64,000 bases of DNA, taken from sequence record HQ630627.1; one strand, written 5' to 3'. Below are positions 3,901 through 34,449 of the stretch, in pieces. Source of the DNA: Pseudomonas phage PhiPA3. The notes under the pieces are model-generated. The model ran no database searches and was not told the origin of the DNA. It saw only the letters and a list, made by a program, of their open reading frames with translations. Each line of letters opens with the position of its first letter. Positions within the stretch are counted from its first letter, which is position 1. Position numbers and translations under genes: made by a program.

Positions 3901-4262
3901 TTGAACACTGCTACGTTTTGCAGGTTAAGCTTAACAGCCTCGTCTTTGCGCAGTGGTTTGAAGAAACGATGTTGACGACGGAACTCTTGTTCGAGTGTGG
4001 TCGCAATAACGCTGGTACGCCGTGCGTTACCATCAAGTGTCTTCAGTTCCAACTTGTGTTCAATGAACGACTTCCCCATCAACCGCGCAAAGATGGGATC
4101 CGATTGACTCGGACCCCGAACAGCGTAGTTGTCGTCGAAGAACTGGTAAACAGTCTCCAAAGGAAGCTCAAGTTTCTTGACGGCATGAAGTCTCGGCTTC
4201 TGCAACTCACTAGCCTGCTTGAGGCCATAGTTCTTAAGAAACTGTGCTATTTTTAAGCGCAT
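972..4262 (-). CDS. Multisubunit RNA polymerase large subunit fragment, beta-like C-terminal part (phiKZ gp180-like); beta-prime C-terminal part not excluded
   Basis: 1096-aa ORF immediately downstream of the beta-prime N-fragment gene (6-nt spacer). Weak GEME-like stretch (LEEMGEPTDFEGLL) near the C-terminus. Synteny with the gp181-like gene. Confidence 0.45.
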   Translation of the reverse strand: MRLKIAQFLKNYGLKQASELQKPRLHAVKKLELPLETVYQFFDDNYAVRGPSQSDPIFARLMGKSFIEHKLELKTLDGNARRTSVIATTLEQEFRRQHRFFKPLRKDEAVKLNLQNVAVFNYNMLNDLYKYQANYKAGWYRWVNNTATFWDGVVDAHKRFGWNQFIEIHIPESIPLYSEFVQFSKGQTQALLEKFRTPAVLNIFDLYRFFGNSRETSFMSVLPREAYEKINFLIRAQGSFFVINLGLLEEWRKSPEFEEEQLTVAQESYVDELGLEVVYTPDVMQRRILSLLTTLVEYNHGNDTLVEQDSSDVAISPTALEEPTDVVSEDEDIEPTDDVEPQEEAEDVDVGDVVDDSSKDDSSIVKTLDLGLMEVTYNPPPESELEITTLVIEKDPLETAPLVKEVEAEKTLNVSDGKATKSALPRFETDDPLVDGVGAKAFELYQVGMISPRTFEQAVEDASSYKSLPDPFGSGKTIAEAMQYAAEDYAIPEVKFADKTTILDKSMLGAKHKAMVRKYNKTLLPKDIMNSVLAIQQQGIAVTDIKMEEVQDAMNHYQSFTVTVKPIRGRSSQLRFRIPVIDRDGRFRSNGVTYRQRMQRADVPIRKVNPTRVALTSYYNKTFVSRSGLAVNNYDVWLVRQITARALDPNDQSITNVRYAELDQSAYVLPRVYSAMGGAFQAFDNGKNQLYFKYADRVDYFREKFHLDVTQFEKDGYVMTGVREGQPIMLDQAGNFYLQDGNDLEPMGTLVDMVGLNLTKAPLEAIVMSVSNKEIPLAFILGFHGGLTNLLNKLGVKYDKHQRGTRIQVSQDDYTLAFADEILVFSRQDYKAQLVLAGFKRYHQSLKKFSRYDFDRRDVYYRVLEEAGLSSRYAKEITHLFNSWVDPITKGILEEMGEPTDFEGLLYRSVELLMNDWSPGEVDGAYMRYRGYERMAGAIYKSLNQAAKVYNNREGSADQQIILDQHEIWRKIVQDPTVATIEDSNPIANLREQEAMTYRGDGGHGPTSMVARTRIYGEADVGVVSESTVDSGDVGVIAYLSPDANFVSMRGTTRMFDKETDGHAKMLSTSALLAVGSMNDDCYCLLNVCEVYTPML

Positions 4263-5920: not shown

Positions 5921-5984
5921 TTTACTTTCCTCTTAGGGGTTAGCGGTTAACGATATGACTGTTTAGATATCGATGGAGTTAACT

Positions 5985-8900
5985 ATGGCCAGCAAAAAGA
6001 CCACGCTGCCAAAGCCCAAGGGGATCAATCCCCAAGGGTCTATTGTTCAGCTTGATCTTGACGACTTTGATGATCTGTTTGACGAAGACTTCGGATTGCC
6101 CAAAAAGAACAGTCCGTATACGGACTTCAAATCGGGCCTGAAGAGTGGATTCCTCGACAAATTCAAGACCACCACGGTTCTCAAGAACTTCCTACGTCAT
6201 GCAGCACCAGATGGATTCAACCGCTTGTTCGGCGTGTATGATGATCTTGTTACCAGTGCAAAAGACATCAAGGATTCTGTTGAGCGTACCAACGCTGCTG
6301 ACTTGGATTATCTGGGTCGTAAGGCAAAGTCTTATTTGCCGTACCTGGAAAAACACATTCCTAATACGCTTTACAAATCGATGGACGAAGGTCTGTCGCG
6401 TAAGCTTGAGCAATATAACTACGAAATGGAAGCTGGTCGTGACCAGATTGCCATCCGTAAACGGGCTCAGCAAGCTGCTGATGAAAATGAAATCAAGGCA
6501 GCACTCGACCAGAACACCCTGGTAAGTAAAGAGAACTTCCAGCGCTCCGAGCAAGGCATTATTAAACGTGCCGCCATGGAGAAGGCTGAAAGAAATATTA
6601 GGGATAAGATTTCCGCAGGTCGTTTCGATTTTACATCTCGTGCAATGAGCATGGCTGTAGACAGCCTGACTCGGATCTCTGCTTATCATGAGCAAGTAAG
6701 CTACGGGATGCAACGTAAGAGTCTGGAACTTCAGTTCCGTTCTTACTTGGGTATTCGTGATCTGGTTCGCCTGACAGAAGCCAACATGGAACTTCAGGAC
6801 CGTGCTTTCCAAGCATTGGTTCGTAACACTGGCATCCCGGAACATAAGAAAGCGGGCATGGGTAGTGGTTTACTTGGCTTTGGTGACGGTAGAGGTAATG
6901 CCAGTTTCGCTAAAGCCTTGGCAGGAGCCGCTTTCTCCACTCTTCCTGGCTTCATGGGGAACTGGGGTGGTCAGGTAGAAGATCGAGTTAAGAAGTCTCT
7001 CAGTGGTCGCTTGGCAGACATCGTTTCGGCTGCTCGTATGGGTGAGGGGGCTGGTTCCTTCTGGGATCAGCGTTACAATCTTGCCGGTATGATGGCTGGA
7101 GAATTTGGTTCTGATGTAATCAATGATCACATTGCCCCATGGCTGGGTTCTAAACTCCGACCTGGTGCTACTAGGTTAGCCCAGCGATTTGGTGGGCGCC
7201 ATAACCAACTGAACTATACGCTGGACAATATCCCAGCCTTCTTGCAAGAGTTTGTTAACAACTCGCAAAACCAGTACGGTTGGAAAGGCACCGTCCGTGA
7301 CATGATAGCTCCGTTCATCCCTCAGTTCTCCTTAAAGGACCGACTGGATAATGGAACCTATCAAACAATTGACCAGCAAACTGCTTTTAACCAGTTGACA
7401 CAACGGTCGATCACTGAAGTCATTCCTGGCTTACTGTCACGTGCAGTACAGGAACTGCGTATGATCCGTACTGGCCGTAATGATGTTGAGCGGGAAGTCT
7501 TTGACATCACTACTGGTAAATTTACGGTTGAGAAAACTGCTCAAGACAACGTCATGCATCGCGTTATTCCCAAGACGGCTATTCGTAACACGTCCGGAAT
7601 GATCAATGATGCACTCAATAACCTCGATCAAGAAGGTCAGTTGTCTCCAGCGGCACGTAAAGCTCTCAGCGAGAGGTTACTGCGTGATGCTTCAACTAAT
7701 CGTCGTTTTGACCCTAACGCATATATCCGTGCTGGGGGTTACGCTGATGGTCTGTCGCCGGATGTTACAAACGAACTCAGTCAGTTCTTCCGTGGGAAAT
7801 TCCAGTTCGACGACAAAGGTAAGATGACGGATACCGCGGCCAACCATCAACTCCGTGATGAGTGGTCTCGGGCTTTCTTGGACATTCGTAGTGTTTCACG
7901 TGATCCGATAAAAGAGATTCATCGCCTGGTGAACGCCGGTCATACCGAATCTCTGCGTATGCTCGGTATCATCGTTACTGAACAAGGTCAGGATAAGATC
8001 AACTACAACCGCGTTTGGGAAATCCTGCGTAGTGGTGTTTCGGATAACAATCCGTACGCTGGTGGTCCGATGCCTGATCCGGAACAAACGGGTACTCCTG
8101 GCGATAAGGGTTTTGTTGGTCCTGCCTATCCAGGTGCTGCGAAAGCTGGTGCATTAAATGCGATGGTGAGATTCCGTCGTAAATATGCCCCTGAAGAACA
8201 ACGCGCTCGTGACGAGTGGAACAAGTTTGCAAACAACATGCGTGGTCGTTACGGTTCCGCTGCTGACCAAATCAGGGAAGCTGGCGGTTTCGGAGACTGG
8301 ACCAATTCGATGTATGGTCGGTATAGCCCGAAAGTATCCGGGATGGCCACCGACGTAGTCGAACGAGCTAAAGCGTTCGCTGAGCGCCATAAGCCCGGTG
8401 CTGTTGATAGCATGATGAGTCGAGCCAAGGCTCTGGCTGGAAACTTCTTCCCCAACGGCCTTAGTGCTGGCGGTGTGTTGGATGCAGCCATGGGTTATGG
8501 GAAGAGCGCATATAGCCAGGCTATGTCGCAGATGCCTGGGATGAACGACGCCGCTGGCTCGTACGTCCAAGAGGGAATGAATAAGATCATGGACTTGTAT
8601 TCCAAGTTCGATCCGAAAGTACCCCTTATCAAAGGCACCGATTTCATCCAAGGTAAGCTCATTGACCTGAACACCAAGAAAGTCATTACGAAACCCAGTG
8701 ATATCACAGGTGCTGTGATTAACATGGCTGGTATGACTGTCCTCACAGCTCAAGAAGCTGCAAACGGTCTGTTCGATATTACGGGTCAGATGGTCATTAA
8801 GACATTGACCAATAATGGTGATATCTCTAATGCCGTATCTAAAAATACTGGTGGAATGGGTGCTGCTGCGAACGACGCAGAAAATCCTAACGAGGAGAAA

Positions 8901-11900
8901 GACCTAGAGGAACAAGACTGGTGTATCGACGGTGATCCGGATCCGATTATCACATCCCGTGGTCTGAAGAACGGTTCGTATTTCGATTCGGTAACAGGTG
9001 ACGTGGTTACGAAGCTGAACGAAGTTAAAGGAGATATTCTTGACAAGTTCGGTAACATCGTAGCGACAGCTAAAGAACTTGCAGTTGGTTTGATCTCTCG
9101 GAAAACGGGTAAGCGTTGGCGTTTGAAGAAAGGCCCGAAAGCCATTCTGAACATCATGGGTAAACTGGGTAAGTTTGGTAACATGACAGCTCACCAAGCT
9201 GCCTGGGGTATGATTAAGTTTGGTGCTAAGGCTGCCTTAGGTATTGCCTCAAAAGCATTTAACTTTGTGGTGGAAACACAGAACGCTTATCTGCCTGATT
9301 CTGATGACCCTGTATTCGAACGTCGTAAGTGTCATAATGGCGAATACTTCGATGAGAAGGGTAATGTGATCGAGAACTTCGCTGATGTCTATGGACAAAT
9401 CTACGATGCCAAAGGAGAACCCATTCTACCATTAGAACAGTTCAAGGATCTCATTAACTACGACGGCACTAAACATATCCTGGCTAAGAACAAAAAGCTT
9501 ATTCGACGTACATTAAATCGCGGCATTCGAGCTTTGCGAAAGAAATACGTCAACATGTCTAAGCGTTATTGGAAATGGTTGGGACGCACCAGCGCCAAAC
9601 TTGCCCCCAAGGTGGGTAGAAAACTCCTCGGCGGTTTTGCTAGCGCCGGTGGAGCTATCATGAACCGTCTTGTGGAGCGAGTTCCTTACGAAGACTTTGA
9701 AACGACGGATCAAGTATTGTTGGGTCAGATCCTGGAGACTCTACGGGGTACTCAGGAACAGCAAGTCCGCGAAGGTAGCTGGCAAGATCAAGCCGCTAAG
9801 AAAGCAGAAGCCGCAGAACGAGAAAGCCTCTTTGGAAGCTTAGGTGGACGCAAAGGCGAAGGTGATCAAGAGAAAGCCCAGAACATCTTCATGAGAGGTC
9901 TAACCAAGGGACTGCAAAGTGTCTTTAGTAAGATCACTGGTAAAGATGCTGATGAAGATTCCGGTATCATGGATCTCATCTTGGGTGGTGGTAAGAAAGG
10001 CGGTGGTAAAGGTCGATTGGGTGGGATGCTGGCTCGTGCAGCTCCATACGCTGCGGCCGGTGCTGCTACAGCGGTAGGTACAGCCATTACCGCGAAGAAG
10101 TTCAATGATCAAGGATTTGACGGCAAGGAAAGCGGCTTACTCACCGCACTGTCGGCAACAGCTCCGGGCAAGTTAATGACGGACTGGATCATTGCTCCAA
10201 CCATGTTGAAATTCAAGAACGTTGACAAATTGACGAAGCCGTTCATTCTGCTTCGGATGGCGCAGTACGGTATTACTGACCTTGATCAACAGAGTAAGAT
10301 CTTTACTCTTGAACAAGAGTTCGAGAAATCCGCAACACGTGGTGAACGTTCTGACATCAGCATGGAAGCCGTAGGTGCGAAACGGGTATTTGAGATTCTG
10401 GATATCAAACCAGATGACAAAGCGCGTATCAAAGCGATGGCTGATTGGTTACAACTTCGTTTCCGACCGATCTTCAACGCCTATCTGAACGCTCTGCATT
10501 CAGTAGACAAAGATAATATCAATGTCACTGAGATGGACGACAAGCTCCCCAATGAGTTAAAGGGTGCTGTACTGGAAAAAGTGAAGTTCCCGATGCTTGG
10601 GGATACGCCGTACCAGTACCGGATGAGTCCGTTCGATCCAGAAGGCAAGCTGGAAGATACAACTGCGGATATCACGGAACGCTTTGAGAAGTACACCAAG
10701 ATGTTTGCAGGGGTTAAGGCCCTAGCTTTAGCGAATAAGAATAAAGTCGCTAGAGACAAGGCCATGGCAGGCGAAGCTGCCAGTACTGTTCAGGATGCAG
10801 CTAAAAAGGCTGTAGACACGGCAGTTAAAGGTAGCCCGCTGAGTATGGTTGCTCCCGGTGTTCCTTCACCATTGGCTCCAGTAGATCCGAAATCTAAGAT
10901 GCAACTCAAGACAGCCTTGGGTGGCACTGCGGTAATCACTGGTGTAGGTAAGCTAGGTAGTTCTCTGACTGGCCTACAGGCAATCCGTATGCGGGCTTAT
11001 GGTCTGCAAACGATGGCCTACTCTGACGTACAAGCGTTGCTGTCGTTGGAGGCCAGGTTTGTAGAAGGTCTGAAGATCAGTAACGGCGAGGCAAATTACA
11101 CAGGGGATACGGAAGATCTGATTCAGACTACCGCCCCACTGTTTGGTAAGGACCCTTCCGATGGATCGAAAGATAGAGTTGGGTACGTAAACTGGTTACT
11201 GTATCGCTTTGCTCCGGCATTCCGCGCATACATGCTAGCCTCTTCCCAGTTTGCCCCCAGCGCCAACCTAAATGGATTGGAATCCAAGCTCAAGCCTGGT
11301 GATAAAGTAACTGTTGCAAACGCTGTATTGGGTGCTGCTGATGGTGGGAATTCAGTCTGGAAACAAGCCAGTATCTTCGAGATCAAAGGAGACCCTGAAG
11401 ATCTTAAGAAATTGGCCGAAGCCGACTTGGAACACTTAAAGCAAGAAGCAGAGAAAGACATTGCTGCTTCCCCAACTCAATCAGCGGGTTCTCAGGCTGC
11501 TGGTAAGGCAGCTGCTGATGCCGGTGGTTCATTTGCCGACAAAGCAGTAAGCAGTATTAAGAATGCCTGGGAGAAGACGAAAGACACCGCTGCAACTGCT
11601 TGGCAAAATACCAAAAATGCAGTGAGTGCTGGCGTTGACAACGTCATGGACATGAAAGATGCGGCAACGTATCGCATGGGTCTGGCGGGCGAAGTCAAAG
11701 CAACAGGTAATACCTACGGGTCTCTAGCCCAAGGTAATGGTGGTCAGTGGGAACAAATCCCCATGCCTAAGCAAAACAAATCCGCAGCAGCTGCTCGTGA
11801 GACGCTGTCGGTTGTAGCGCAAATGGTGGGGGTACCTGTTGAACTGTTGATGATCTTCTGTGCTATCGAGTCCAGCTTCGACTGGAATGCTCGGGCAGGT

Positions 11901-12944
11901 ACGTCTAATGCATCTGGTTGGTTCCAGTTCATTAACAGTACTTGGGACGGCATGATCAAGAAGTACTCGGCTAAGTATGGTTTACCCGCCGATACGCCAC
12001 AGCGGAGTCTCCGGATGGATCCTCGGATCAACGCCCTGATGGGTGCCGAGTTCGTCAAAGAGAACTTCACGATCCTGCAAAATGCGTTGGGTCGTGCTCC
12101 GACTGACGTTGATCTGTACGTTGCACACTTCATGGGGCCATACGGCGCTAAGAAGTTCCTGATGAAAGATCAGAACTCCATCGGTGCCGCTGTATTCCCG
12201 AAAGAAGCCGCTGCTAACCGGACAATCTTCTACAAGAACAAAGGTACTGGTCCTGCCCGTACCCTTGGTGAAATCTATCAGACCTTCGAATCCTTGGTCG
12301 CTCGTTTCCGTAAGATGGCGGGTGGTACCGGTTCGGACGTTAAGATGCCACAACAGCCTGGTGAAGAGAAATCTTCTCAGGAACTTGCTGAAGAACAATC
12401 CAAGCAGGCTGCAAAATCTGGGAGTGCAGCAATTAGTGCATGGGATGTGGATACCTCTGACAATGCCAGTGATGCTGCCGTCGCAAGATCGGAAGCCTAT
12501 CTGGCAAATCAGGGTAAACCACAAGTACCGGTTTTACCGGGTATTACCCCCATGTCCACTGCGCCTGTACCGGCTGGCACTACATCGCCAGATGGTACGC
12601 AGACTGGTGCAACGCCATCTGCGGATTCAGGCGTGAGTGTGGCTGCTGCTGGTACGAATGCACGTGTGGAAGCTGCACAACAGCAAAACACCATTCGCCA
12701 GCATGAGATTCGTCAATCGCAACAAGTTCAACAGAAAGCAATTGATGTGCAAGGTGAGCAACTCGCAATCCTCATCCAGATTCGAGATCATCTCGCTATT
12801 CTGGTTGCCGCTGCACAATCAAAAGGTTCTATTGAACAGCAACAGGTACAGACCGGCAGTGCAGGAGGCGGTAATAATATGACCTCTACTCAACGCACCA
12901 GCCGGCCGGCCCTTGATCGGCCATCACCGCTGAAGCTGCAATAA
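5985..12944 (+). CDS. Giant virion-associated protein with C-terminal lytic transglycosylase (SLT/GH23) domain, phiKZ gp181-like
   Basis: 2323-aa ORF. SLT motifs CAIESSFDWNARA..SNASGWFQFINSTW..AHFMGPYGAKKF at about nt 11800-12250. Start ambiguous between ATG 5973 and ATG 5985; the latter has a GGAG 5 nt upstream. Confidence 0.8.
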   Translation: MASKKTTLPKPKGINPQGSIVQLDLDDFDDLFDEDFGLPKKNSPYTDFKSGLKSGFLDKFKTTTVLKNFLRHAAPDGFNRLFGVYDDLVTSAKDIKDSVERTNAADLDYLGRKAKSYLPYLEKHIPNTLYKSMDEGLSRKLEQYNYEMEAGRDQIAIRKRAQQAADENEIKAALDQNTLVSKENFQRSEQGIIKRAAMEKAERNIRDKISAGRFDFTSRAMSMAVDSLTRISAYHEQVSYGMQRKSLELQFRSYLGIRDLVRLTEANMELQDRAFQALVRNTGIPEHKKAGMGSGLLGFGDGRGNASFAKALAGAAFSTLPGFMGNWGGQVEDRVKKSLSGRLADIVSAARMGEGAGSFWDQRYNLAGMMAGEFGSDVINDHIAPWLGSKLRPGATRLAQRFGGRHNQLNYTLDNIPAFLQEFVNNSQNQYGWKGTVRDMIAPFIPQFSLKDRLDNGTYQTIDQQTAFNQLTQRSITEVIPGLLSRAVQELRMIRTGRNDVEREVFDITTGKFTVEKTAQDNVMHRVIPKTAIRNTSGMINDALNNLDQEGQLSPAARKALSERLLRDASTNRRFDPNAYIRAGGYADGLSPDVTNELSQFFRGKFQFDDKGKMTDTAANHQLRDEWSRAFLDIRSVSRDPIKEIHRLVNAGHTESLRMLGIIVTEQGQDKINYNRVWEILRSGVSDNNPYAGGPMPDPEQTGTPGDKGFVGPAYPGAAKAGALNAMVRFRRKYAPEEQRARDEWNKFANNMRGRYGSAADQIREAGGFGDWTNSMYGRYSPKVSGMATDVVERAKAFAERHKPGAVDSMMSRAKALAGNFFPNGLSAGGVLDAAMGYGKSAYSQAMSQMPGMNDAAGSYVQEGMNKIMDLYSKFDPKVPLIKGTDFIQGKLIDLNTKKVITKPSDITGAVINMAGMTVLTAQEAANGLFDITGQMVIKTLTNNGDISNAVSKNTGGMGAAANDAENPNEEKDLEEQDWCIDGDPDPIITSRGLKNGSYFDSVTGDVVTKLNEVKGDILDKFGNIVATAKELAVGLISRKTGKRWRLKKGPKAILNIMGKLGKFGNMTAHQAAWGMIKFGAKAALGIASKAFNFVVETQNAYLPDSDDPVFERRKCHNGEYFDEKGNVIENFADVYGQIYDAKGEPILPLEQFKDLINYDGTKHILAKNKKLIRRTLNRGIRALRKKYVNMSKRYWKWLGRTSAKLAPKVGRKLLGGFASAGGAIMNRLVERVPYEDFETTDQVLLGQILETLRGTQEQQVREGSWQDQAAKKAEAAERESLFGSLGGRKGEGDQEKAQNIFMRGLTKGLQSVFSKITGKDADEDSGIMDLILGGGKKGGGKGRLGGMLARAAPYAAAGAATAVGTAITAKKFNDQGFDGKESGLLTALSATAPGKLMTDWIIAPTMLKFKNVDKLTKPFILLRMAQYGITDLDQQSKIFTLEQEFEKSATRGERSDISMEAVGAKRVFEILDIKPDDKARIKAMADWLQLRFRPIFNAYLNALHSVDKDNINVTEMDDKLPNELKGAVLEKVKFPMLGDTPYQYRMSPFDPEGKLEDTTADITERFEKYTKMFAGVKALALANKNKVARDKAMAGEAASTVQDAAKKAVDTAVKGSPLSMVAPGVPSPLAPVDPKSKMQLKTALGGTAVITGVGKLGSSLTGLQAIRMRAYGLQTMAYSDVQALLSLEARFVEGLKISNGEANYTGDTEDLIQTTAPLFGKDPSDGSKDRVGYVNWLLYRFAPAFRAYMLASSQFAPSANLNGLESKLKPGDKVTVANAVLGAADGGNSVWKQASIFEIKGDPEDLKKLAEADLEHLKQEAEKDIAASPTQSAGSQAAGKAAADAGGSFADKAVSSIKNAWEKTKDTAATAWQNTKNAVSAGVDNVMDMKDAATYRMGLAGEVKATGNTYGSLAQGNGGQWEQIPMPKQNKSAAAARETLSVVAQMVGVPVELLMIFCAIESSFDWNARAGTSNASGWFQFINSTWDGMIKKYSAKYGLPADTPQRSLRMDPRINALMGAEFVKENFTILQNALGRAPTDVDLYVAHFMGPYGAKKFLMKDQNSIGAAVFPKEAAANRTIFYKNKGTGPARTLGEIYQTFESLVARFRKMAGGTGSDVKMPQQPGEEKSSQELAEEQSKQAAKSGSAAISAWDVDTSDNASDAAVARSEAYLANQGKPQVPVLPGITPMSTAPVPAGTTSPDGTQTGATPSADSGVSVAAAGTNARVEAAQQQNTIRQHEIRQSQQVQQKAIDVQGEQLAILIQIRDHLAILVAAAQSKGSIEQQQVQTGSAGGGNNMTSTQRTSRPALDRPSPLKLQ

Positions 12945-24446: not shown

Positions 24447-27400
24447 ATGTTCGATACATTTCGCACGCTCTTCAGCGGACTAGACGTAAAAGAAACCGAC
24501 ACGGAGATTATCATCAGTGGTGTAGCTGCTAATGAGATCATTCGTGATATGGACAAGTTCTGGAAGACTACCAAGTTGACTGGGAACATGTTCAATAATG
24601 TCTCTCGTCGCTCGATGAGCTTCTATAAGTTCTTTGCTCCAGAAGTCATGTACATGCTGGAGAACATCAAACACTACCGGAATCGTTGGACGTCTATTAA
24701 GGCGATCAATGCGATTCGCGAAGCGTTGATGGAACATACCTGGTTAAAGGGTACCATTCCAGTTGATCCCAATACTGTACCTGGTCGTTTGGATCTACGT
24801 AAGCTCCAGAACTTACATTTTGACGCAATGACCTACCAGATGGAGTATTTCCAGAACTACTCCTATAGACTCGACCAATACGGTTTAAAAGGTGATCTGA
24901 TCGCAGCTGCTGCCGGCACAGGTAAAGCCCAGCCGCTAACTTCCATGGTCAAAGTACCGGGTGGTTGGAAAGCCATGGGTAATATTCAAGTAGGTGATGT
25001 TGTTACTGCTTGGGACGGTACTCCAACTAAGGTAACTGGCGTTTATCCGCAAGGAAAGAAACAAACCTTTACCGTCACCTTCAAAGACGGCCGGACCACC
25101 AAAGCCTGTGACGAGCACCTGTGGAATGTGTACTGCCAAGATTGGACCCGTTACGGTGGAACCGGGTGGCGCGTAATCAACACCTTGGAGTTATTCGGTC
25201 GTATCCAAAGCGGGAAACAACGGCTGTATGTGCAGTTGTGCAAATCCGAGGAAGGTATTGATGTAGAACTTCCCATTGATCCTTACAACCTGGGAGTTAT
25301 CCTTGGTGACGGATGCATCAGCTCAAACTGTGTGTCGGTGACTAGTGGTGACCCGCAGCTCTTCACAGAGTTCGCTAAAGCCCTTCCAGAAAATCTGGAA
25401 TTGATCACCCGTGATGACATCACGATGGGCGTAATCAACAAAAAGGGTGAACGTAATCCGTATACCAGTGCGTTGCGTGAGATGGGGCTACTTGGTGAGA
25501 ACTCACTGACTAAGTTCATCCCGCAAAACTACCTGATGGCGTCCACTGCACAGCGTTTGGCTTTGGTTCAGGGGCTGATGGACACCGATGGTACTGTTGA
25601 TGTTAACAGTAGCCTGAGTTTCTCGACCAGCAGTTACATGTTGGCCAAACAATTCCAGTATCTGATTCGTTCGCTAGGTGGAATCGCGAAGATCTCGTTC
25701 AAGGAGCCAACCTACACCTACAATGGTGTTAAACAGTACGGGAACATGTCGTACCGGGTACTTGTCCGCTTCGATGTGCCATCAGCTCTTTTCCGACTCG
25801 ACCGCAAGTTAGCACGGTGCAATGACAATCATCAGTACACGGAGAATCTTCGGTTGCAGATCAAGCATGTGAACGTGTCAGACCGGGTAGAGTGTCAATG
25901 CATTCAGGTAGAGCATCAGGACCACCTGTACGTTACCGATGATTTCATTGTGACGCACAACACCTACATGACTTCAGCCATTGCAGAAATGCGCAGTGCG
26001 GAGTTGATTGTTGTAATCTGCCCCAAACAAGCATTAGAAACCGTCTGGTTAGAATCTATCCCCGATATGTTCAAAGCCAAACAGAGCGTCTGGAGTTCAG
26101 CGAATAAACACGCTCCCTATAAAGGTGAGCGTTGGATTGTTTGCCACTACGACGCTATGGATCGACTGATCGAACTACTCCGTGATCAGCGAGTCTATAA
26201 AGGTAAACGGGTTGTAACTATCCTTGATGAATCCCACAACCTGAACGATCCAAACTCGGCTCGGTCTTTGTACTATCAGACCATCTGTAAGATCCTAGGT
26301 AGCGAAGACAATCTGTTTGCATCGGGTACACCGGTGAAAGCACTTGGCTCTGAACTAATCGGTTTACTGCGTGTGGTGGATGACATGTTCACACCAGCGG
26401 TAGAAGAACGGTTCCGCAAGATGTACGGTAAAGAAGCCAGTAAAGGTCTTGATATTATCCGTCATCGCTTGGGTCTAATGTCCTTTAAGGTGGAGAAGAA
26501 AGAAACTGGTCTCCAACCTCCGATCATGAAGCCGTATCCAATCAAGATCCCCAATGGGGAACTGTTCACGCTACCGATGATCAAAAAGGACATGGAGAAA
26601 TTCATCAATGAACGCTGGGCTTATTATAAGTCCCGTCGTCCGAATGATGAGAAACTCTGGAACCAGATGTTGGATATCCATCGCAAGTCACTCAAGACAC
26701 GCGATCAAGTCAAAGCCTTTGAAGACTACCTGCGTTTGGTAGAACTCGTTAAGCGTACTCCTGACCCTCGTTACATCGGTGAGGAAATCAAGGCAACGAA
26801 CGTTTACGAGAAGCGGATCTTTGAACCGACCCTTCCACGCACGATGATCCATCAGTTCCGTGACATCAAGTCCGTGATCAAATACACCAACCTTAAGATC
26901 CAAGGTGAATGCCTGGGTCGAGTGTTGGGTGGTAAACGGATTGAAGCGCACGTAGCGATGGTTCCGTATATCGATTGGGTGGGGATTGTTGAGTCTACTG
27001 AGAAGAAGACGATCATGTTCACAAGCTTCGTTGAAGCGGTGGAAGCGTCTGAAATTCACACTACTAAACTAGGGATGAAACCCACAGTTGTGTACGGTAA
27101 GACGACAGGGGATCTAGCAGGCATCGTTAAACGCTTCGATGAAAATAAGTCCATCAACCCATTGTTAGCAACCTTCGCTTCGCTATCTACAGCTGTACGC
27201 TTGACCATGGCTGACACCATGATCCTATTGAACTCTCCATTCCGTGCCTATATTCTGGAACAAGCCATCGCGCGTATCTATCGCATGGGTCAAGACTCGC
27301 AAACTTACGTCTACCAATGCACACTTGATACGGGGGAGGTTCCGAACATCTCTACGCGATCCGCTGACATCCTGGCGTGGTCTACTGCTCAAGTGGAAGC

Positions 27401-27617
27401 GATCATGGGTATCAAGTCTCCTCTGCAAATGGAGGATGCGGCCAGCTTTGAAAATCTAGCTGAAGAACTCAAGTACGATGAGAACCGAATCATGCATCGG
27501 ATTCTGGCTAATGCTTTCGAAGCGTATGGTATTGAAATTTCCCAAGAAGACTTCATTGTGAAGTCTGTTGTTAAACACAAACCTTTAGTGCCCGCATACA
27601 TGCGGTTCGGAGGATAA
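24447..27617 (+). CDS. SF2 (DExH) helicase, intein-containing precursor
   Basis: Walker A AAAGTGK|(intein)|TYMTSA, motif II VVTILDESHNL, motif III ASGTPV. Confidence 0.65.
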   Translation: MFDTFRTLFSGLDVKETDTEIIISGVAANEIIRDMDKFWKTTKLTGNMFNNVSRRSMSFYKFFAPEVMYMLENIKHYRNRWTSIKAINAIREALMEHTWLKGTIPVDPNTVPGRLDLRKLQNLHFDAMTYQMEYFQNYSYRLDQYGLKGDLIAAAAGTGKAQPLTSMVKVPGGWKAMGNIQVGDVVTAWDGTPTKVTGVYPQGKKQTFTVTFKDGRTTKACDEHLWNVYCQDWTRYGGTGWRVINTLELFGRIQSGKQRLYVQLCKSEEGIDVELPIDPYNLGVILGDGCISSNCVSVTSGDPQLFTEFAKALPENLELITRDDITMGVINKKGERNPYTSALREMGLLGENSLTKFIPQNYLMASTAQRLALVQGLMDTDGTVDVNSSLSFSTSSYMLAKQFQYLIRSLGGIAKISFKEPTYTYNGVKQYGNMSYRVLVRFDVPSALFRLDRKLARCNDNHQYTENLRLQIKHVNVSDRVECQCIQVEHQDHLYVTDDFIVTHNTYMTSAIAEMRSAELIVVICPKQALETVWLESIPDMFKAKQSVWSSANKHAPYKGERWIVCHYDAMDRLIELLRDQRVYKGKRVVTILDESHNLNDPNSARSLYYQTICKILGSEDNLFASGTPVKALGSELIGLLRVVDDMFTPAVEERFRKMYGKEASKGLDIIRHRLGLMSFKVEKKETGLQPPIMKPYPIKIPNGELFTLPMIKKDMEKFINERWAYYKSRRPNDEKLWNQMLDIHRKSLKTRDQVKAFEDYLRLVELVKRTPDPRYIGEEIKATNVYEKRIFEPTLPRTMIHQFRDIKSVIKYTNLKIQGECLGRVLGGKRIEAHVAMVPYIDWVGIVESTEKKTIMFTSFVEAVEASEIHTTKLGMKPTVVYGKTTGDLAGIVKRFDENKSINPLLATFASLSTAVRLTMADTMILLNSPFRAYILEQAIARIYRMGQDSQTYVYQCTLDTGEVPNISTRSADILAWSTAQVEAIMGIKSPLQMEDAASFENLAEELKYDENRIMHRILANAFEAYGIEISQEDFIVKSVVKHKPLVPAYMRFGG
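24927..25961 (+). mobile_element. Intein (about 345 aa) with LAGLIDADG homing-endonuclease domain, inserted in the helicase Walker A motif
   Basis: Hint blocks: MGNIQVGDVV; block B GRTTKACDEHLW; two LAGLIDADG motifs LGVILGDGCI and LVQGLMDTDGTV; block F/G VEHQDHLYV..FIVTHN then +1 Thr. Extein junction rebuilds GTGKT. Confidence 0.7.
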
Positions 27618-28013: not shown

Positions 28014-30494
28014 ATGGTCTACGCCATTCCAGATAAAGCCGCAGGGAAATATGCATCGGCTCAAACGGTAAACTGGACGTTCGCCGCTGGCGTGGTAGGT
28101 TATACTTGGAACACCGGGGATACTCCCCCGGTGATTTCCGAGTATATTGCCTACGATAACCAGACTCCTCAGAATCCTTTCATTGCTGTTACTCAAGATG
28201 GTAGCGGTAAAGTGGTTTACGATGGCGGTTTCCCTAAGTGGTTAAACAATCAGTTAGGGTCAACTACAACCACTACACCGTTTGCTAATTTGACGATTGG
28301 TCAGAAATACTTCGTTAACGCGTTGAACTTCATCGCTAGTCCTGATCGACCTAAGAAAGTTCTATTCTTAGGAGATCGCCTGTTTACTAACAGTGGTGGA
28401 AGTTACCAGATTAAAGAAACGGCTCCTGGTGGATTCAAGACTTTCATTGAGACGCTTTCCGCCGTTGCTGGCTATATCCCCACTATCAAAGATTCGGGCG
28501 ATTATGGTGGTTCATCGCTTAATCCAACTTTAGTTGAGATGGACCAATACGCCGCCGTTGTGTTGGTAGCTACAGACACAACTAAAGTAGCTGGATGGTT
28601 CACTGCGAATGCTCTGTTAGATATCCAGACATATCGCCGTAATGGTGGTGGTATATTCATCATTACCGATGATGGTCCGGAGATTTCCGACATTGCTAAC
28701 GCATCACCGACTCCAACAAACGCTTTCTTCTGTACAGCCAACCAACTGGCGGTAAAGTTTAATTGCTGGTTCTCTGGTAATTACAACCGCACGCCTATCC
28801 TGGTCAGTGAACTAAAAGCTAATTACGGTGATCATCCGTTATGGCAGGGTATGGCCGATACAGATATGTTTCCAGCCGGTGGTTCAGAGTCACGTGTTTA
28901 CGTAAACTCGGTAGCACTGTCAGCTCCGTCTGCATTGGCTACGCCTATCGCCAGTTCAGCATTGACCAAAGTTAACTTCTTGGTAAAGTTGGCAGATGGA
29001 TCATTCCACACGGAGACATATGGCTATACCACAAATGGATCGGACATTGTCCAATACCTTAACCGAGCAGCCAACAACGTCGTGGTTACCGCCCTGGATA
29101 CGGGCGTAAACAATAGCGCGGCCCTAGACTTTAACATCACACATACCACATCAGGTACGTTGGTGGCGTATATTCGACGCTACAAAATTGATAGTCAGTC
29201 TGTAGTGAATGTGGGTGAGGTTCGATACGTTCCTGGACAAGGGACAGTAACATCCTGGTATGCCTATAATGGCATCGTTCCCGTTCGAAATGGTGATAAG
29301 ATCTATGTTGATTTTATCGCGCCGTTCGAATACCACTCGGAATTGCCCGTAACACGTTACATGCCTCCAATGCATGGTATCGTTAAGACACTAGCTGATG
29401 CAGCGAAATGGATTCGTCCACGCTATTCGACTGGTTCGTTAATATCGGTTATCCGTAGGGCTGTAGAAGAAGCCGCTGGTCAACACCCAGCTATGGGGAT
29501 GGATCAGTGGACAGGCACTGCTCAACATGTAATGGGTTTGGCCAATTTCTATGCTGATCTATTGGATCGTCCACGCACTCAGGCAGTAGCCTATTCGACA
29601 ACCGCAGCTATTACAGCAGCATTGCCGACTCTGACGCCTCCTGATGCATCAGCCATCTTTAACAAATGGGCACGTTTTTCTAACAATGCCTATTATCCGG
29701 CTGGCACTACCCCAGAAGGGGATGCCGCATCTTGGACATGGGATGACACGACTAAGCAGGCAATTCAGACAGTAAATTCGGGGACGTATAACGGTTTCTT
29801 GTCTGATGAAACTCCTATGGTGTGGACGTTAGATGTAACTCTCCAGAGTAACAACATTGACGATGATTTCAATGGTATCGTGATCTGTTTTGATCGCGAT
29901 GAATCAGCGGGTATCAACCGTACATTAAGTGTTGTTGTTAACCGTGGAGCTATGGGTTTTGGTACCCTACCACATCCATGGCCTAACTTAATGTTACTAA
30001 CGGGTTTCGAACGTGGCAATCCAGCACATGCTGAATGGAAAGTCTTCGGACAAAGTTCAGTGGGTGATCCAACTGATACATCAGGATGGAATGGTTCTTA
30101 TAGACGTCTGTTCATTTCCCGTCGAGCAGATCAGATAACCGTACAGGCATCTGATTGGAACTCTACGGTACTCAATAATGTTCACACCCTAACACTGGAC
30201 CTGACATCTGATCCCCTACTGGCTCGCTTTCGTGGACCTAAGAGGTACGGCTTGAGTAACCAAAGCCAACCTGATTCGTTTTTCAAGAACATCAACTATG
30301 TTGGTGAACTGCAACGAAATCTGGCATTGGACATGCAAGCGAACAAAGTTTACTTCTACACCAGTAATGGTTGGTTGTTATTGAACGGAGTACTCATCCA
30401 CGACCTCTATGGATGGCCTCGTACACTGGAATCTTCAGTGGATGGTTCTGTGTGGCACTTGAACCAAGATCGAACAATCACCCGCATTTCGTAA
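28014..30494 (+). CDS. Large virion protein, putative tail fibre/spike (826 aa)
   Basis: Long ORF, no catalytic motif recognised. Followed by a bidirectional terminator and convergent with the FN3 paralog array. Confidence 0.4.
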   Translation: MVYAIPDKAAGKYASAQTVNWTFAAGVVGYTWNTGDTPPVISEYIAYDNQTPQNPFIAVTQDGSGKVVYDGGFPKWLNNQLGSTTTTTPFANLTIGQKYFVNALNFIASPDRPKKVLFLGDRLFTNSGGSYQIKETAPGGFKTFIETLSAVAGYIPTIKDSGDYGGSSLNPTLVEMDQYAAVVLVATDTTKVAGWFTANALLDIQTYRRNGGGIFIITDDGPEISDIANASPTPTNAFFCTANQLAVKFNCWFSGNYNRTPILVSELKANYGDHPLWQGMADTDMFPAGGSESRVYVNSVALSAPSALATPIASSALTKVNFLVKLADGSFHTETYGYTTNGSDIVQYLNRAANNVVVTALDTGVNNSAALDFNITHTTSGTLVAYIRRYKIDSQSVVNVGEVRYVPGQGTVTSWYAYNGIVPVRNGDKIYVDFIAPFEYHSELPVTRYMPPMHGIVKTLADAAKWIRPRYSTGSLISVIRRAVEEAAGQHPAMGMDQWTGTAQHVMGLANFYADLLDRPRTQAVAYSTTAAITAALPTLTPPDASAIFNKWARFSNNAYYPAGTTPEGDAASWTWDDTTKQAIQTVNSGTYNGFLSDETPMVWTLDVTLQSNNIDDDFNGIVICFDRDESAGINRTLSVVVNRGAMGFGTLPHPWPNLMLLTGFERGNPAHAEWKVFGQSSVGDPTDTSGWNGSYRRLFISRRADQITVQASDWNSTVLNNVHTLTLDLTSDPLLARFRGPKRYGLSNQSQPDSFFKNINYVGELQRNLALDMQANKVYFYTSNGWLLLNGVLIHDLYGWPRTLESSVDGSVWHLNQDRTITRIS

Positions 30495-30534: not shown

Positions 30535-31503
30535 TTAACGCACCAGTTCTAAGAACGGTAAATAACCGCGTGTAGTTCCGCCAGTTGCCGTCGTTGTAGA
30601 TGCTAACGTACCGAAGTTAGTAGTCGTTCCACGTTGAACAGCCTGACCATTCGACAACACAGCTCCAACTTGGAACGTCACACCAAACCCTGAGTTACGG
30701 TTATACGAAGTCGTAATGTCCTGACTGTTGTATTTGTCGCGCAACCACGAGTACACAAACGACGAACTCTGTACAGTGTACACTCGGTCGATCGTACTGG
30801 TAACTTGGTCACCAATAACGGCCATACCTGTTGCAGCATCCGTTAGGTCAGTGTAAACAATGCGATCACCCAAACTAGGTGCGTACACCTTGTAAACATT
30901 CGACCCGTTGGTGTAGGTCTTACCCTGGACAGTAGCCGTTAACGTACTGGTCACAGTGGACGGTAGATCACTGAAATAATCCCTTGCTTCAGGGAACATG
31001 ATACCGGCTTCGTAGGTAGCTTTCCAGTTCACCCCAGAGAAGAAGCTATGGTCTGGGATATAGATCGTCTTACCATTTACTTGGAACTTATGGCAGTTGA
31101 CCGGCAGGTTAGTACTATCGACGAAGTTACCAGTGGACAGAGCTAACTGACTACGGAAAGCGGTTCGATCTACGATACTGGTAAAAGCTACTGTACCAAA
31201 ATAACCATTCCAGAAATCGCCCAGGAGTGGCGTAGTTCCACCAGGGCCAGGATTGGTGTACTCGGCAATAGCAAAACTACGACGCATCGCTGCTACCGTG
31301 CGGCTATCAGGCAACACGTTGACGATGTAATAATGGTAAACGGTGTCCTTTACAGCTGTCGTGTCATCCCATGTTGTGGTGCCTGCTGCTAGGGTAGCAA
31401 TGGGAGGTTCCACCACTTCTGTAATAGAATTCACTCTGACAGAACCACGGTAGATTTTGATGCTTGACACGGTCCCGAAACTACTAAGATTGAGTCTAAT
31501 CAT
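30535..31503 (-). CDS. FN3-like domain paralog 4 (322 aa), putative fibre/receptor-binding or decoration protein
   Basis: Shares YxYxV (FN3-like), NPGPGGTTPLLGDFWNGYFG, HKFQVNGKTIYIPD, AGIMF and a C-terminal GYLPFLELVR with three neighbours. Confidence 0.5.
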   Translation of the reverse strand: MIRLNLSSFGTVSSIKIYRGSVRVNSITEVVEPPIATLAAGTTTWDDTTAVKDTVYHYYIVNVLPDSRTVAAMRRSFAIAEYTNPGPGGTTPLLGDFWNGYFGTVAFTSIVDRTAFRSQLALSTGNFVDSTNLPVNCHKFQVNGKTIYIPDHSFFSGVNWKATYEAGIMFPEARDYFSDLPSTVTSTLTATVQGKTYTNGSNVYKVYAPSLGDRIVYTDLTDAATGMAVIGDQVTSTIDRVYTVQSSSFVYSWLRDKYNSQDITTSYNRNSGFGVTFQVGAVLSNGQAVQRGTTTNFGTLASTTTATGGTTRGYLPFLELVR

Positions 31504-31511
31504 AACTCACC

Positions 31512-32474
31512 TCAGAAGTCGAGTTTCAGTACGGGAAGGAAGCTTGCCGATGTGTTAGCCGAGATAGCCACAGATACCATGTTTTGCATGTTACCAGTGC
31601 TGCTGCGAACGAAAGCTTGCGCAACGTCAGTACGGTAAGTAGCTAGGTGATAGCCAGTAATACCGCCAGAAGTGATATCAGCCGGCCAATCGTTAGAGTC
31701 CCAACGTACCTGACTCCACGACTGCGCTATGTTACCTGTCGCGCCGTACGCGTACAAGCGTTCGAAAGTACGGCTGATGAAATCCGTACCGTCTACAGCA
31801 GCTGTACCGCCGGCAGAGTTGTAAGCATCCGCTGGCATCCACGGGAGACAAACTCGGAACAGATGCCCCTTAATCTCCCACTGACGATATTGCTCAGATT
31901 TATTCGCTGTAGTCAACGCGGTTTGCATACCGGCATTCAAACGATCCCAGTTATCGCCGGGTGCATTAAACGCCATCCCCATTCGGTAGATATCTTGCCA
32001 ACTGGCGCGAATGAATCCTGCGGTGGGGATAAAGTAAATAACCCCATCGACGATAAACTTGTGCCATTCAAATTTGGTTGGTGCGTTAATCGAGATGGAA
32101 TTGATAGGTGTGTAATCCGCAATCTTCAACACCGAATACAATTCACCGACTGTAACAAAGTCAGTTGTCGACTTACCGAAGTAGCCGTACTTGTAATCAC
32201 CGAAGAGAATATTCTGACCACCGGGACCAGTATAAGGCATGAAAGATAGAACTTTCTGTTCGCTGAACGAACTACCATCAGGAGACAGACACTCGATGAT
32301 GTAATAGTACAGTTGATTACGGACAGCAGTGGTATCATCGTAGTTGCGAACAGCAGCGCCGACTGTTGCCAATGCCGCTGGTAGTGCCGTCACGTCCATG
32401 GGTGTGTTACTGCGGTACACTTTATAGCCGGTCGCATTGGGGGCCATACTAGCCCAAGATACTTTAGTACCCAT
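31512..32474 (-). CDS. FN3-like domain paralog 3 (320 aa)
   Basis: YTGPGGQNILFGDYKYGYFG, HKFIVDGVIYFIPTAG, MGMAFN, C-terminal FLPVLKLDF. Confidence 0.5.
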   Translation of the reverse strand: MGTKVSWASMAPNATGYKVYRSNTPMDVTALPAALATVGAAVRNYDDTTAVRNQLYYYIIECLSPDGSSFSEQKVLSFMPYTGPGGQNILFGDYKYGYFGKSTTDFVTVGELYSVLKIADYTPINSISINAPTKFEWHKFIVDGVIYFIPTAGFIRASWQDIYRMGMAFNAPGDNWDRLNAGMQTALTTANKSEQYRQWEIKGHLFRVCLPWMPADAYNSAGGTAAVDGTDFISRTFERLYAYGATGNIAQSWSQVRWDSNDWPADITSGGITGYHLATYRTDVAQAFVRSSTGNMQNMVSVAISANTSASFLPVLKLDF

Positions 32475-32476
32475 GA

Positions 32477-33466
32477 TTAGCTCCCAATGTTAACTACGTT
32501 AATCGGCACCATTTCAAGAATTGGGTACCAACCGGCCACAGTGGCGCTCGCGGCGCGGGCGTTTGGTTTACCTGCGGCACTAGCAGTTGACGTGAAGTCA
32601 CGGAAAACAACGTTGGTGCCATTGTACTCACGACAGATTACATAGTTTGTGCCGGTCGGCCATGTTAAGTTACCTTGTGCAATGTACGGCGCAATTCGTT
32701 CTAGAGAACGGTTGTTTGTGAAGTAGTTACTCAGCGGCATTATGAACATATCAACTGCTGAGTTAGTCAGACGAGAGTCAACGTTTGCCCAAGACCCGAA
32801 CGTGGAGTCAACCACATATCCAGCTGGGTCAGCATCGTGTGCAACAATGCCAGTAGGACAGGAAACGATAAACTCATAACCACGGATGGTGACACGTTTG
32901 TTCTGGGGTACTTCTGCGGCTGCACCCAGTGGAGTCGGCTTCACAGTGGGTACTTTATCGCCAAACATCAGCCCGGCGTTGTAAATAGTCAACCAGGTAA
33001 AGGTTGTTGTACTAGATACTCGGCGATCAGGGACATAAATCGTTTTCCCTTTATAGGAGAACTTATGCCATTTTTGCAAAGCGTCTGTATCAGCTGTCCA
33101 GGATTGGCCACACGCTGTAATAAGAGCAGCGTTACTGATGAAATCAAGTGGGTTAACGCTACCATAGTAACCGTAGTTTACGTTACCGAAGAGCAGTTTC
33201 TGGGGACCAGGACCGGTGAACGGCAACGCATCAAACGAGAAGACTTTACTCTTACTAACGTCGGTACCTTTTACGGATTCCCACATGTAGTAGTATTTCA
33301 GACCGAACGTGACGTTAGTGTCATCGTAAGTGGTTTCACCATTAGTAAAGGTAACGTATGGAGTACCGGGGTTACTACGATCGATGTTCGACGTACTACG
33401 GTACAGATTGACCGTGACGCCAGCCCCGTTCGGGTTGACCCATTTCAAATGGATTGTGTACGACAT
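32477..33466 (-). CDS. FN3-like domain paralog 2 (329 aa)
   Basis: LKYYYMWESV, FTGPGPQKLLFGNVNYGYYG, HKFSYKGKTIYVPD, AGLMFG, C-terminal WYPILEMVP. Confidence 0.5.
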   Translation of the reverse strand: MSYTIHLKWVNPNGAGVTVNLYRSTSNIDRSNPGTPYVTFTNGETTYDDTNVTFGLKYYYMWESVKGTDVSKSKVFSFDALPFTGPGPQKLLFGNVNYGYYGSVNPLDFISNAALITACGQSWTADTDALQKWHKFSYKGKTIYVPDRRVSSTTTFTWLTIYNAGLMFGDKVPTVKPTPLGAAAEVPQNKRVTIRGYEFIVSCPTGIVAHDADPAGYVVDSTFGSWANVDSRLTNSAVDMFIMPLSNYFTNNRSLERIAPYIAQGNLTWPTGTNYVICREYNGTNVVFRDFTSTASAAGKPNARAASATVAGWYPILEMVPINVVNIGS

Positions 33467-33477
33467 TAATCGTTACC

Positions 33478-34449
33478 TCAGACAAAAGTATAAGAATCTA
33501 CGATGGTACCGGCTAAAATGTCGGTACCACCACCGACTGTAGAATAGTCGATAAGTGTTTCAGTTGGCGGAGTAATATCGGTGAAGCCCATTACGTAAGC
33601 ATTATTAACGTTCCAGACATCAGTAAGACGTTGTGCAATAGCCTCACCAGTGTAGTCACCCCCAGTGATTTGAGATACCGTACCCTGAGAACCCTGCGGA
33701 AGTGCGTCCACTAATGTGATCGGTACGATCTTCAGATGGTCTTGTGGGATGACTTCCAGCACGGGACGCCAGTTGCCGTTAGCACTGGTAAAGCTGTATA
33801 GGCTACCTACGTACGGCAATGTACCGTTCATCTGGAACCATGGTGCTCCAGCTGACGCTGTTGCTGCTGCCATCCAAAGGATGCTACTTGCACCCAACTG
33901 AGCTGCCGTATAATTACCCCAAGACCCATCGCTAAGCTTAATGAAGATTTTATAAAGCTCAGTCAGATAAGACGTTGTAGAGTTAACTTCCGGTGTGAAC
34001 GGGTTAGCTGGGGCTGTGCCCAGACGCAGCCTAAACTGCCAGTTCTTCCCGTTATTATCTTGCATTGCGTAGATCTTATTCTGTGCAACACTGTACCCAG
34101 CCGGGACGTTTTGTCCAGTGCCATCATCGCCGAAGATAAGTCCTTTATCGTACAGCATTTTCCACGAGACTATGTTAGTCAAAAAACTCATGGGGGTGAA
34201 ACAAACCTTATTTTGATACATGTACTTAATCCACTGTACAGTATTAAAATTGGGGTTTATTTGCGATATCCAGTCTGCAATATCAGCTTGTTCAATAAAA
34301 GCGCTATCCTGATAAATGTCAGACCCATTAATTACCCCGAAAAAACCTAGGGTGGTATCGCCTTTAGCGAGCGTTGTCGGTCCAGGACCAGAGTACGGAA
34401 AGTCCAACGCACTCTTTTTTCCGACCGTACTTAACAGCAATTCAAACAT
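33478..34449 (-). CDS. Paralog 1 (323 aa), lacks the N-terminal FN3-like domain
   Basis: YSGPGPTTLAKGDTTLGFFG, KYMYQNKVCFTPMS, GLIFGDDG, C-terminal WRPVLEVIP. Confidence 0.5.
   Translation of the reverse strand: MFELLLSTVGKKSALDFPYSGPGPTTLAKGDTTLGFFGVINGSDIYQDSAFIEQADIADWISQINPNFNTVQWIKYMYQNKVCFTPMSFLTNIVSWKMLYDKGLIFGDDGTGQNVPAGYSVAQNKIYAMQDNNGKNWQFRLRLGTAPANPFTPEVNSTTSYLTELYKIFIKLSDGSWGNYTAAQLGASSILWMAAATASAGAPWFQMNGTLPYVGSLYSFTSANGNWRPVLEVIPQDHLKIVPITLVDALPQGSQGTVSQITGGDYTGEAIAQRLTDVWNVNNAYVMGFTDITPPTETLIDYSTVGGGTDILAGTIVDSYTFV

Follow-up and report, generated by a model that had tools for sequence, protein, structure and literature searches.

Class 3 inteins were defined in 2010, and from the start the proteins noted to contain them were of the helicase type (DnaB, RecG, SNF2, terminase), with the P-loop as the usual place (PMC2807308). 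These inteins have no Cys, Ser or Thr at position 1 and carry a Trp at position B:12, a Cys at F:4 and a Thr at G:5 (the WCT triplet), usually followed by Ser or Thr at position +1 (PMC2807308, PMC5050341, PMC5222942). For P-loop inteins, the 'classic' point of insertion is that between the Walker A residues Lys and Thr (PMC5050341). In 2020, a survey arrived at 1701 class 3 inteins. A class 3 intein in the P-loop of a phage helicase, SNF2 helicases included, is a textbook case and not unusual (PMC2807308, PMC5050341). Here we describe such an element in Pseudomonas phage PhiPA3. In a stretch of 64,000 nucleotides (sequence record HQ630627.1; hereafter the window), the P-loop of a virion-type SNF2 helicase is interrupted by an insert which we read, with a probability of about 0.85, as a class 3 (WCT-type) intein with a two-motif LAGLIDADG homing endonuclease.

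The prototype of the class is the MP-Be 'DnaB' intein (Tori et al. 2010, PMC2807308), which occupies residues 141-481 of Bethlehem gp11. We looked for it in the DnaB-like gp62 of Bethlehem, where it is not present, and a tblastn search covering the genome's right half gave nothing; it was found in gp11, and this location is confirmed by the native exteins VSQDQ/TKNTF given in PMC2807308 (here and below, a slash within a motif marks the insertion point). Mutagenesis has demonstrated the class 3 mechanism for the WCT inteins Msm DnaB-1 and Mle DnaB (PMC5222942). MchDnaB1 has its Ala1 directly after a P-loop GK, the N-extein being described as 'SVGK preceding Ala1' (PMC7664689). A class 3 intein in a Snf2-family helicase is known from Deinococcus radiodurans; according to the accounts of Brace et al. 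2010 given in PMC7664689 and PMC5222942, experiments revealed the Block F branched intermediate of this intein.

The PhiPA3 element shares with MP-Be the phage host, the length (345 versus 341 amino acids (aa)) and a LAGLIDADG endonuclease, and both match over their full length (BLASTP E=8e-31, 29% identity). In the multiple alignment, residues H65, W67, C320, T339, H340 and N341 of MP-Be stand opposite H64, W66, C325, T343, H344 and N345 of the PhiPA3 intein, as does Thr+1, and further residues relevant for splicing have their counterparts (I321 in I326, D324 in E329, H328 in H333 and F330 in Y335). The two differ in that Pro1 of MP-Be aligns with Pro3 of the PhiPA3 intein, the MP-Be junction lying two residues further in, after VSQDQ and not after GK. 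They also differ in the host protein, which for MP-Be is the large protein gp11 and not an SNF2 helicase, and in position B:7, which is Ser in MP-Be and Cys here. Msm DnaBi1 (E=5.9e-7) and MchDnaB1 (E=1.2e-5) are among the best matches in solved structures, with the HQW and C-V-E-V...THN segments aligned. Unlike the PhiPA3 element, Msm DnaBi1, Mch DnaB1 and Mle DnaB (PDB 6bs8, 6rix) are mini-inteins without endonuclease and reside in bacterial DnaB; Msm DnaBi1 moreover has Asp at B:7, and the Cys48 that serves as its redox partner is not part of the conserved blocks (PMC6195587). The Deinococcus Snf2 intein, likened here by description only, is located on a bacterial chromosome and not in a jumbo phage. 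Of all solved structures, the one that matches best in sequence belongs to a class 1 intein, gp41-1 from a cyanophage-like DnaB (PDB 6qaz, 6riz; E=1.3e-8 for the wild type and 1.3e-10 for the WCT-grafted form). It shares 35% identity over the first 75 residues and the THN end, but begins with Cys1, carries Phe at B:12 and Asp at F:4, occurs as a naturally split intein and lacks an endonuclease.

An intein with a LAGLIDADG endonuclease had been proposed for this place from the bare sequence (hereafter the original prediction), and its boundaries turned out to be exact to the base (Table 1). The precursor is one unbroken open reading frame (ORF), in which residues 161-505 correspond by translation to the intein. 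Its 345 codons are inserted in frame between the Walker A residues Lys and Thr, with AAAGTGK and TYMTS as flanks. Orthologues without an intein in HPP-Temi, 201phi2-1 (gp300) and phiKZ (gp203) read GTGK/T(Y/F), and in the protein alignment both flanks are free of gaps. The insertion is thus missing from orthologues, and its removal restores the conserved host motif GTGKT, just as the original prediction had it for the extein junction. At the DNA level the intein-less junction would read GCCGGCACAGGTAAA directly followed by ACCTACATGACTTCA. No shift of the junction is possible, as neither K(-1) and N345 nor A1 and T+1 are identical. Since the intein-less orthologues read straight across GTGK/T, Ala is residue 1 and the proposed start AQPLTSMV holds; the finding that had been named as speaking against the proposal, a first residue that proves to be Cys or Ser once the alignment is precise, was looked for and did not occur. 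A tblastn search for a second intein in the window returned the self-match only, the next match having E=0.22.

Table 1. Features of the intein, its host gene and neighbouring genes in the PhiPA3 window (positions are those of the window).
Feature	Position	Strand	Description
Precursor ORF	24447..27617	+	1056 aa plus stop; SNF2-domain helicase interrupted by the intein (ORF list, Pfam)
N-extein	24447..24926	+	160 aa; C-terminal end is the start of Walker A, AAAGTGK (24906-24926)
Intein	24927..25961	+	345 aa, Ala1-Asn345; HINT splicing domain split by LAGLIDADG endonuclease domain
Block A	24927..24965	+	AQPLTSMVKVPGG; no nucleophile at position 1; 'AQP' start typical of the subfamily
Block B	25089..25130	+	GRTTKACDEHLWNV; Cys61 (B:7), His64 (B:10), Trp66 (B:12, W of WCT; 25122-25124)
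LAGLIDADG motif 1 (block C)	25290..25316	+	LGVILGDGC, catalytic Asp128
Endonuclease block D	25512..25523	+	KFIP, Lys196
LAGLIDADG motif 2 (block E)	25563..25595	+	LVQGLMDTDGT, catalytic Asp221
Block F	25887..25934	+	VECQCIQVEHQDHLYV; Cys325 = F:4 (25899-25901), predicted initiating nucleophile; Tyr335 = conserved aromatic
Block G	25941..25964	+	DFIVTHN/T; Thr343 (G:5), His344, Asn345, Thr+1 (25962-25964)
C-extein	25962..27614	+	551 aa; first residue is the Walker A Thr, reads TYMTS
Virion RNA polymerase beta-like subunit	972-4262	minus	
Tail protein	5973-12944		2323 aa, with transglycosylase domain
Virion structural protein	28014-30494		

Concerning the splicing blocks, the complete class 3 signature is present, which bears out the original assignment. 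Position 1 is Ala and neither Cys, Ser nor Thr. The Trp expected at B:12 is Trp66, two residues past the block B His (His64-Leu-Trp66). A Cys in block F had also been pointed out correctly, but block F has two of them (VECQC), and only the second, Cys325, is F:4 and aligns with C320 of MP-Be and Cys118 of Msm DnaBi1; the first, Cys323, is variable among relatives. Position G:5 is Thr343, followed by His344-Asn345, and the +1 residue is the Thr of Walker A, in agreement with the THN end and Thr+1 proposed before. Block G is matched by TIGR01443 (intein_Cterm) with 19.0 bits against a cut-off of 15.6.

Relatives of the intein are widespread. A tblastn search found them in 885 phage records, a search of a large protein database gave 596 proteins at E<=1e-3, and in bacterial genomes at least 421 loci encode a relative. 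Judged by the phage and protein matches and by the PF14528 match given below, the resemblance goes far beyond what chance would produce. The protein relatives sit in P-loops of PhoH, DnaB, SNF2, terminase and other AAA ATPases. Conservation was counted in two alignments, one of the 120 best proteins and one of 80 bacterial loci, as fractions of the residues aligned at each position; in what follows the protein count precedes the bacterial one. Position 1 is Ala in 109/113 and 76/80 (185/193 overall), with Q2 and P3 nearly invariant. The Trp at B:12 is found in 120/121 and 80/80 (200/201 overall), and the His at B:10 in all sequences of both alignments (121/121, 80/80). Likewise, F:4 is Cys and the end is Thr-His-Asn in every case (each 119/119 and 80/80, 199/199 overall). 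The +1 residue is Thr or Ser and nothing else (102 T and 17 S; 76 T and 4 S), whereas the -1 residue, always preceded by Gly, is mostly Lys or Arg (88 K and 23 R; 67 K and 12 R).

Position B:7 deserves separate mention. In inteins it is usually Thr, Ser or Asn. Here it is Cys61 (25107-25109), and Cys is kept at this position in most of the AQP...THN subfamily (104/121 of the proteins, 67/80 of the bacterial loci). Cys61 should adjoin the catalytic Cys325, and a role in activation or a disulfide partnership is conceivable. A reversible Cys61-Cys325 disulfide may render maturation of the helicase redox-dependent, by analogy to Msm DnaBi1, where the partner Cys is another one. As a further observation on the family, several EL-like Pseudomonas jumbo phages (among them EL, MIZ-Pa99 and HHBS8_1) have four separate intein matches per genome; the annotations of the genes at these places name an RNA polymerase beta subunit, a terminase large subunit and a helicase. 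Judged by these matches, EL-like genomes carry multiple copies of the same intein family.

The host gene is a member of the gp203 group of SNF2/SF2 helicases. In the outer parts of the 1056-aa ORF, Pfam detects Helicase_C, SNF2-rel_dom and ResIII above threshold, and in its middle the LAGLIDADG_3 domain, where Hint matches remain below threshold. The spliced extein is the orthologue of phiKZ gp203 (58.5% identity) and 201phi2-1 gp300 (67.5%), and in tblastn it shares 58-69% identity with its counterparts in Pseudomonas chimalliviruses. Across the phage collection the same search gave relatives in 203 records, in 189 of which at least 80% of the query is found in a single place, and most of the matches listed run across the junction in one unbroken piece. 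These orthologues come from chimalliviruses of Pseudomonas, Erwinia, Vibrio, Aeromonas, Serratia and Klebsiella. Chimalliviruses are nucleus-forming jumbo phages. Besides Walker A, the helicase has its DExH motif, motif III and motif VI in the C-extein (DESH, 26226-26237; SGTP, 26322-26333; QAIARIYRMGQ, 27261-27293), and their retention argues that a working P-loop is under selection. In phiKZ, gp203 is a proteolytically processed helicase, which is packaged in the head together with the DNA (PMC12676376).

As for the endonuclease, the original prediction described both LAGLIDADG motifs as intact, and so they are: each has its acidic residue, and block D has its Lys, as in LAGLIDADG homing endonucleases of the PI-SceI type. 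In motif 1, G123 and G127 are invariant and D128 and G129 are conserved to at least 90% in the 120-protein alignment; among the bacterial loci D128 is present in 73/80, with Glu in 6 more. In block D, K196 and P199 are invariant in the proteins, and K is found in 77/80 bacterial loci. In motif 2, D219 is invariant, D221 and G222 are conserved to at least 90%, and D221 is present in 78/80 bacterial loci. PF14528 matches intein residues 209-265 (E=2.5e-11; 44.1 bits, cut-off 22.5). Compared with the closest allele, that of phage phiHQ, the proportion of nonsynonymous differences (pN) is 0.119 in the endonuclease domain and 0.127 over the intein, while that of synonymous differences (pS) is about 0.8 and saturated; this low pN with saturated pS argues that the endonuclease domain has long been under purifying selection.

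The fold is in accord with this assignment. An AlphaFold2 model of the intein, built with an alignment of 64 sequences, has a mean pLDDT of 96.5 and a pTM of 0.93. In a Foldseek search against PDB the top matches are the intein-endonucleases TliVMA (E=2e-17), PI-SceI (TM 0.74) and PI-PfuI, followed by MchDnaB1 and MsmDnaB1 over the splicing domain (TM about 0.8, normalised on the target). Model and matches to intein structures thus both point to a HINT fold, and with high confidence the endonuclease domain is modelled as a complete PI-SceI-like fold. The standard intein profiles perform less well: PF05203 (Hom_end_hint) reaches 17.5 bits on the intein, below its cut-off of 32.1, and an NCBIfam scan of the intein gave no match to an N-terminal intein model.

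The same GK/T site is occupied in the gp203 orthologues of phages phiHQ, BRkr, phiLBG22, PA1C, PS119XW/HHBS36_1 and SL2. Between PhiPA3 and the phiHQ-type allele, the intein is 82% identical and the extein 68% identical at the aa level. The intein of the PS119XW/HHBS36_1 type is 64% identical to that of PhiPA3 and starts with Ser1 (SLRLD...), the W, the C and the T being kept. The site is empty in HPP-Temi, though its extein is 93% identical to that of the intein-bearing phiHQ, and also in phiKZ, though its extein is 93% identical to that of the intein-bearing SL2. Between phiHQ (locus L001, 3521-6676) and HHBS36_1 (locus L006, 301-3450), the exteins are 98.1% and the inteins 61.6% identical at the nucleotide level; inteins as divergent as these in near-identical exteins can only be due to replacement of one intein allele by another. 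The SL2 allele (locus L007, 325-3234) has 274 aa, with a deletion of about 70 residues in the endonuclease domain and intact splicing blocks, and both of its LAGLIDADG motifs are mutated (LGKTLGENK and LMDTCGEV); it gives the impression of a late stage of the homing cycle, with the endonuclease in decay. The PA1C gene (locus L005, 301-3455) is 97.6% identical to that of phiHQ at the nucleotide level and has a 1-nt deletion at gene position 977, in the endonuclease domain, which is either a sequencing error or the mark of an inactivated gene. Because this deletion splits the gene, GenBank shows two overlapping coding sequences (CDS) for PA1C, each named 'SNF2 domain helicase'. Of the 203 orthologue records, 60 were sampled evenly, and in about 5-8 of these an interruption lies at or close to the GK/T site. 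Such absence, degeneration, frameshift or exchange of alleles among near-identical phages indicates a mobile element. The greater identity of intein than of extein (82% versus 68%) was considered as evidence for a recent transfer of the PhiPA3 copy itself and rejected as proof, since synonymous sites are saturated. Base composition gave no signal of foreign origin either, the difference between the intein (about 49-50% GC) and the extein (about 46-47%) being too small.

By signature and homology, splicing is expected to proceed through Cys325 as follows. The 1056-aa precursor, its P-loop broken, would be without an intact ATP-binding site. Cys325, positioned by His64 and Trp66, would attack the Lys(-1)-Ala1 bond, so that the N-extein is carried on its thiol as the Block F branched thioester. 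By transesterification the N-extein would then pass to Thr+1, which yields the Block G branched ester, and cyclisation of Asn345, assisted by His344, would release the intein. A final O-to-N acyl shift would restore GTGK-T and yield the 711-aa helicase. The excised intein would in turn cut those gp203 alleles of related phages in the same cell that have no intein, and recombinational repair would copy the intein into them (homing); cleavage of the intein-less allele, too, is inferred, the evidence being the indirect one of patchy occurrence and swapped alleles in relatives.

Several points weigh against this interpretation of an intein that both splices and homes. The endonuclease can decay, as the related alleles of SL2 and PA1C show. 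With synonymous sites saturated in both intein and extein, the higher identity of the intein to its phiHQ counterpart is equally well explained by stronger constraint. The WCT triplet grafted onto a class 1 intein gave no productive splicing (PMC7664689); the triplet failed there in a foreign scaffold, so that its presence alone is insufficient proof of activity. In a genome-wide screen phiKZ gp203 tolerated transposon insertions (PMC12676376), and this dispensability makes selection for splicing less absolute than in DnaB or TerL. Finally, phages of this kind form a nucleus, and the excised endonuclease would need access to the DNA within it.

One alternative retains a class 3 intein competent for splicing and takes the LAGLIDADG domain to be no longer active, the element being a passenger that has become fixed, is inherited vertically and has come to the end of its homing cycle. 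The decay of the sister alleles by deletion and mutated motifs in SL2 and by frameshift in PA1C, and the synonymous saturation towards the nearest allele, which leaves no sign of a recent transfer of the PhiPA3 copy, would fit with it. In PhiPA3 itself, however, D128, K196 and D221 are intact, and they are conserved over about 200 relatives; the low pN in the domain speaks for long-term purifying selection, the complete modelled fold is at odds with a degenerating domain, and intein alleles are exchanged between near-identical phages. We regard an inactive endonuclease as possible but rather doubtful.

Much less credit is due to a dead intein, that is, a pseudo-intein which does not splice, leaving a helicase that is non-functional or used unspliced and is tolerated since gp203 is dispensable. 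The transposon insertions in phiKZ gp203 and the frameshifted PA1C allele are compatible with this, and the WDT-type pseudogene intein Arth_1007 offers a precedent (PMC3196547). Yet all catalytic residues are present, pN over the intein is low against a saturated pS, the extein with all its helicase motifs is conserved across the 203 phage records, and several closely related Ala1 P-loop class 3 inteins were shown to splice (PMC5222942, PMC6195587), which together make a dead intein very unlikely.

Splicing by the class 2 (KlbA-like) route, in which Thr+1 attacks the N-terminal junction directly and no Block F intermediate is formed, is less probable still. Ala1 is common to KlbA inteins, and inteins bearing the class 3 signature could in principle take either path until their Cys F:4 was mutated (PMC5222942). 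Class 2 is, however, defined by the missing WCT (PMC2807308), and the PhiPA3 intein is not of this type because it has the triplet; mutation of Cys F:4 blocked splicing and N-terminal cleavage in all WCT inteins so examined, namely MP-Be, Msm DnaB-1 and Mle DnaB as well as Bvi IcmO (PMC2807308, PMC5222942), and the F:4 Cys is invariant in about 200 relatives. A class 1 intein with a misplaced boundary and a true residue 1 of Cys or Ser, for which the Ser start of the HHBS36_1/PS119XW allele and the match to gp41-1 might be quoted, has next to no chance of being correct, as the intein-less orthologues fix K/A and N/T at a junction that cannot slide, no Cys or Ser occurs within five residues past it, and F:4 is Cys and not the Asp typical of class 1 (PMC2807308).

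The class 3 intein with its homing endonuclease might also be more than a selfish passenger. By analogy to the PhiPA3 intron endonuclease gp210, its endonuclease could serve as a weapon between co-infecting nucleus-forming phages, although we think this unlikely. The idea arises from two divergent lineages, Ala1 ('AQP') and Ser1 ('SLR'), sharing one P-loop site in phages with 98% identical helicase genes. If it were true, cutting a gp203 allele of the rival that is intein-less or differently occupied could lower the yield of the rival; entry of the excised intein into the phage nucleus would be required for this.

A literature search found no description of inteins in gp203 orthologues and, for phiKZ-like phages, a generic mention in a review only. 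In GenBank the orthologous intein-bearing genes carry the names 'hypothetical protein' or 'DarB-like antirestriction' or are given as two split CDS, and none is labelled as intein; the failure of standard Hint profiles to recognise this intein is the probable cause of these mis-annotations. A correct annotation would give a single SNF2 helicase gene that contains an intein. Nothing here alters the known working of class 3 inteins. The locus adds an apparently intact, full-length class 3 intein with endonuclease, whereas the solved class 3 structures among the Foldseek PDB matches are all mini-inteins. Its phage family is also one in which the part of homing endonucleases in competition is being actively studied. 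Among closely related jumbo phages, a single site shows alleles that are occupied, empty, swapped or decayed, and this set would be a convenient natural system in which to study the homing cycle.

The window (1-64000) comes from a chimallivirus-like jumbo phage, and no tRNA genes were found in it. In megablast searches of the phage collection with the gene and with a 25-kb stretch, the only match was one of 215 bp to phage Noxifer, so at the DNA level the phage is missing from that collection; an exact look-up of the 1056-aa protein likewise gave no record. The neighbouring genes include virion components (Table 1), and on the minus strand at 30535-34449 there are four tandem ORFs of 320-329 aa, all of which match phrog_1062 and phrog_3589 (virion structural protein). 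On the strength of these shared matches, the region is a tandem array of paralogues.

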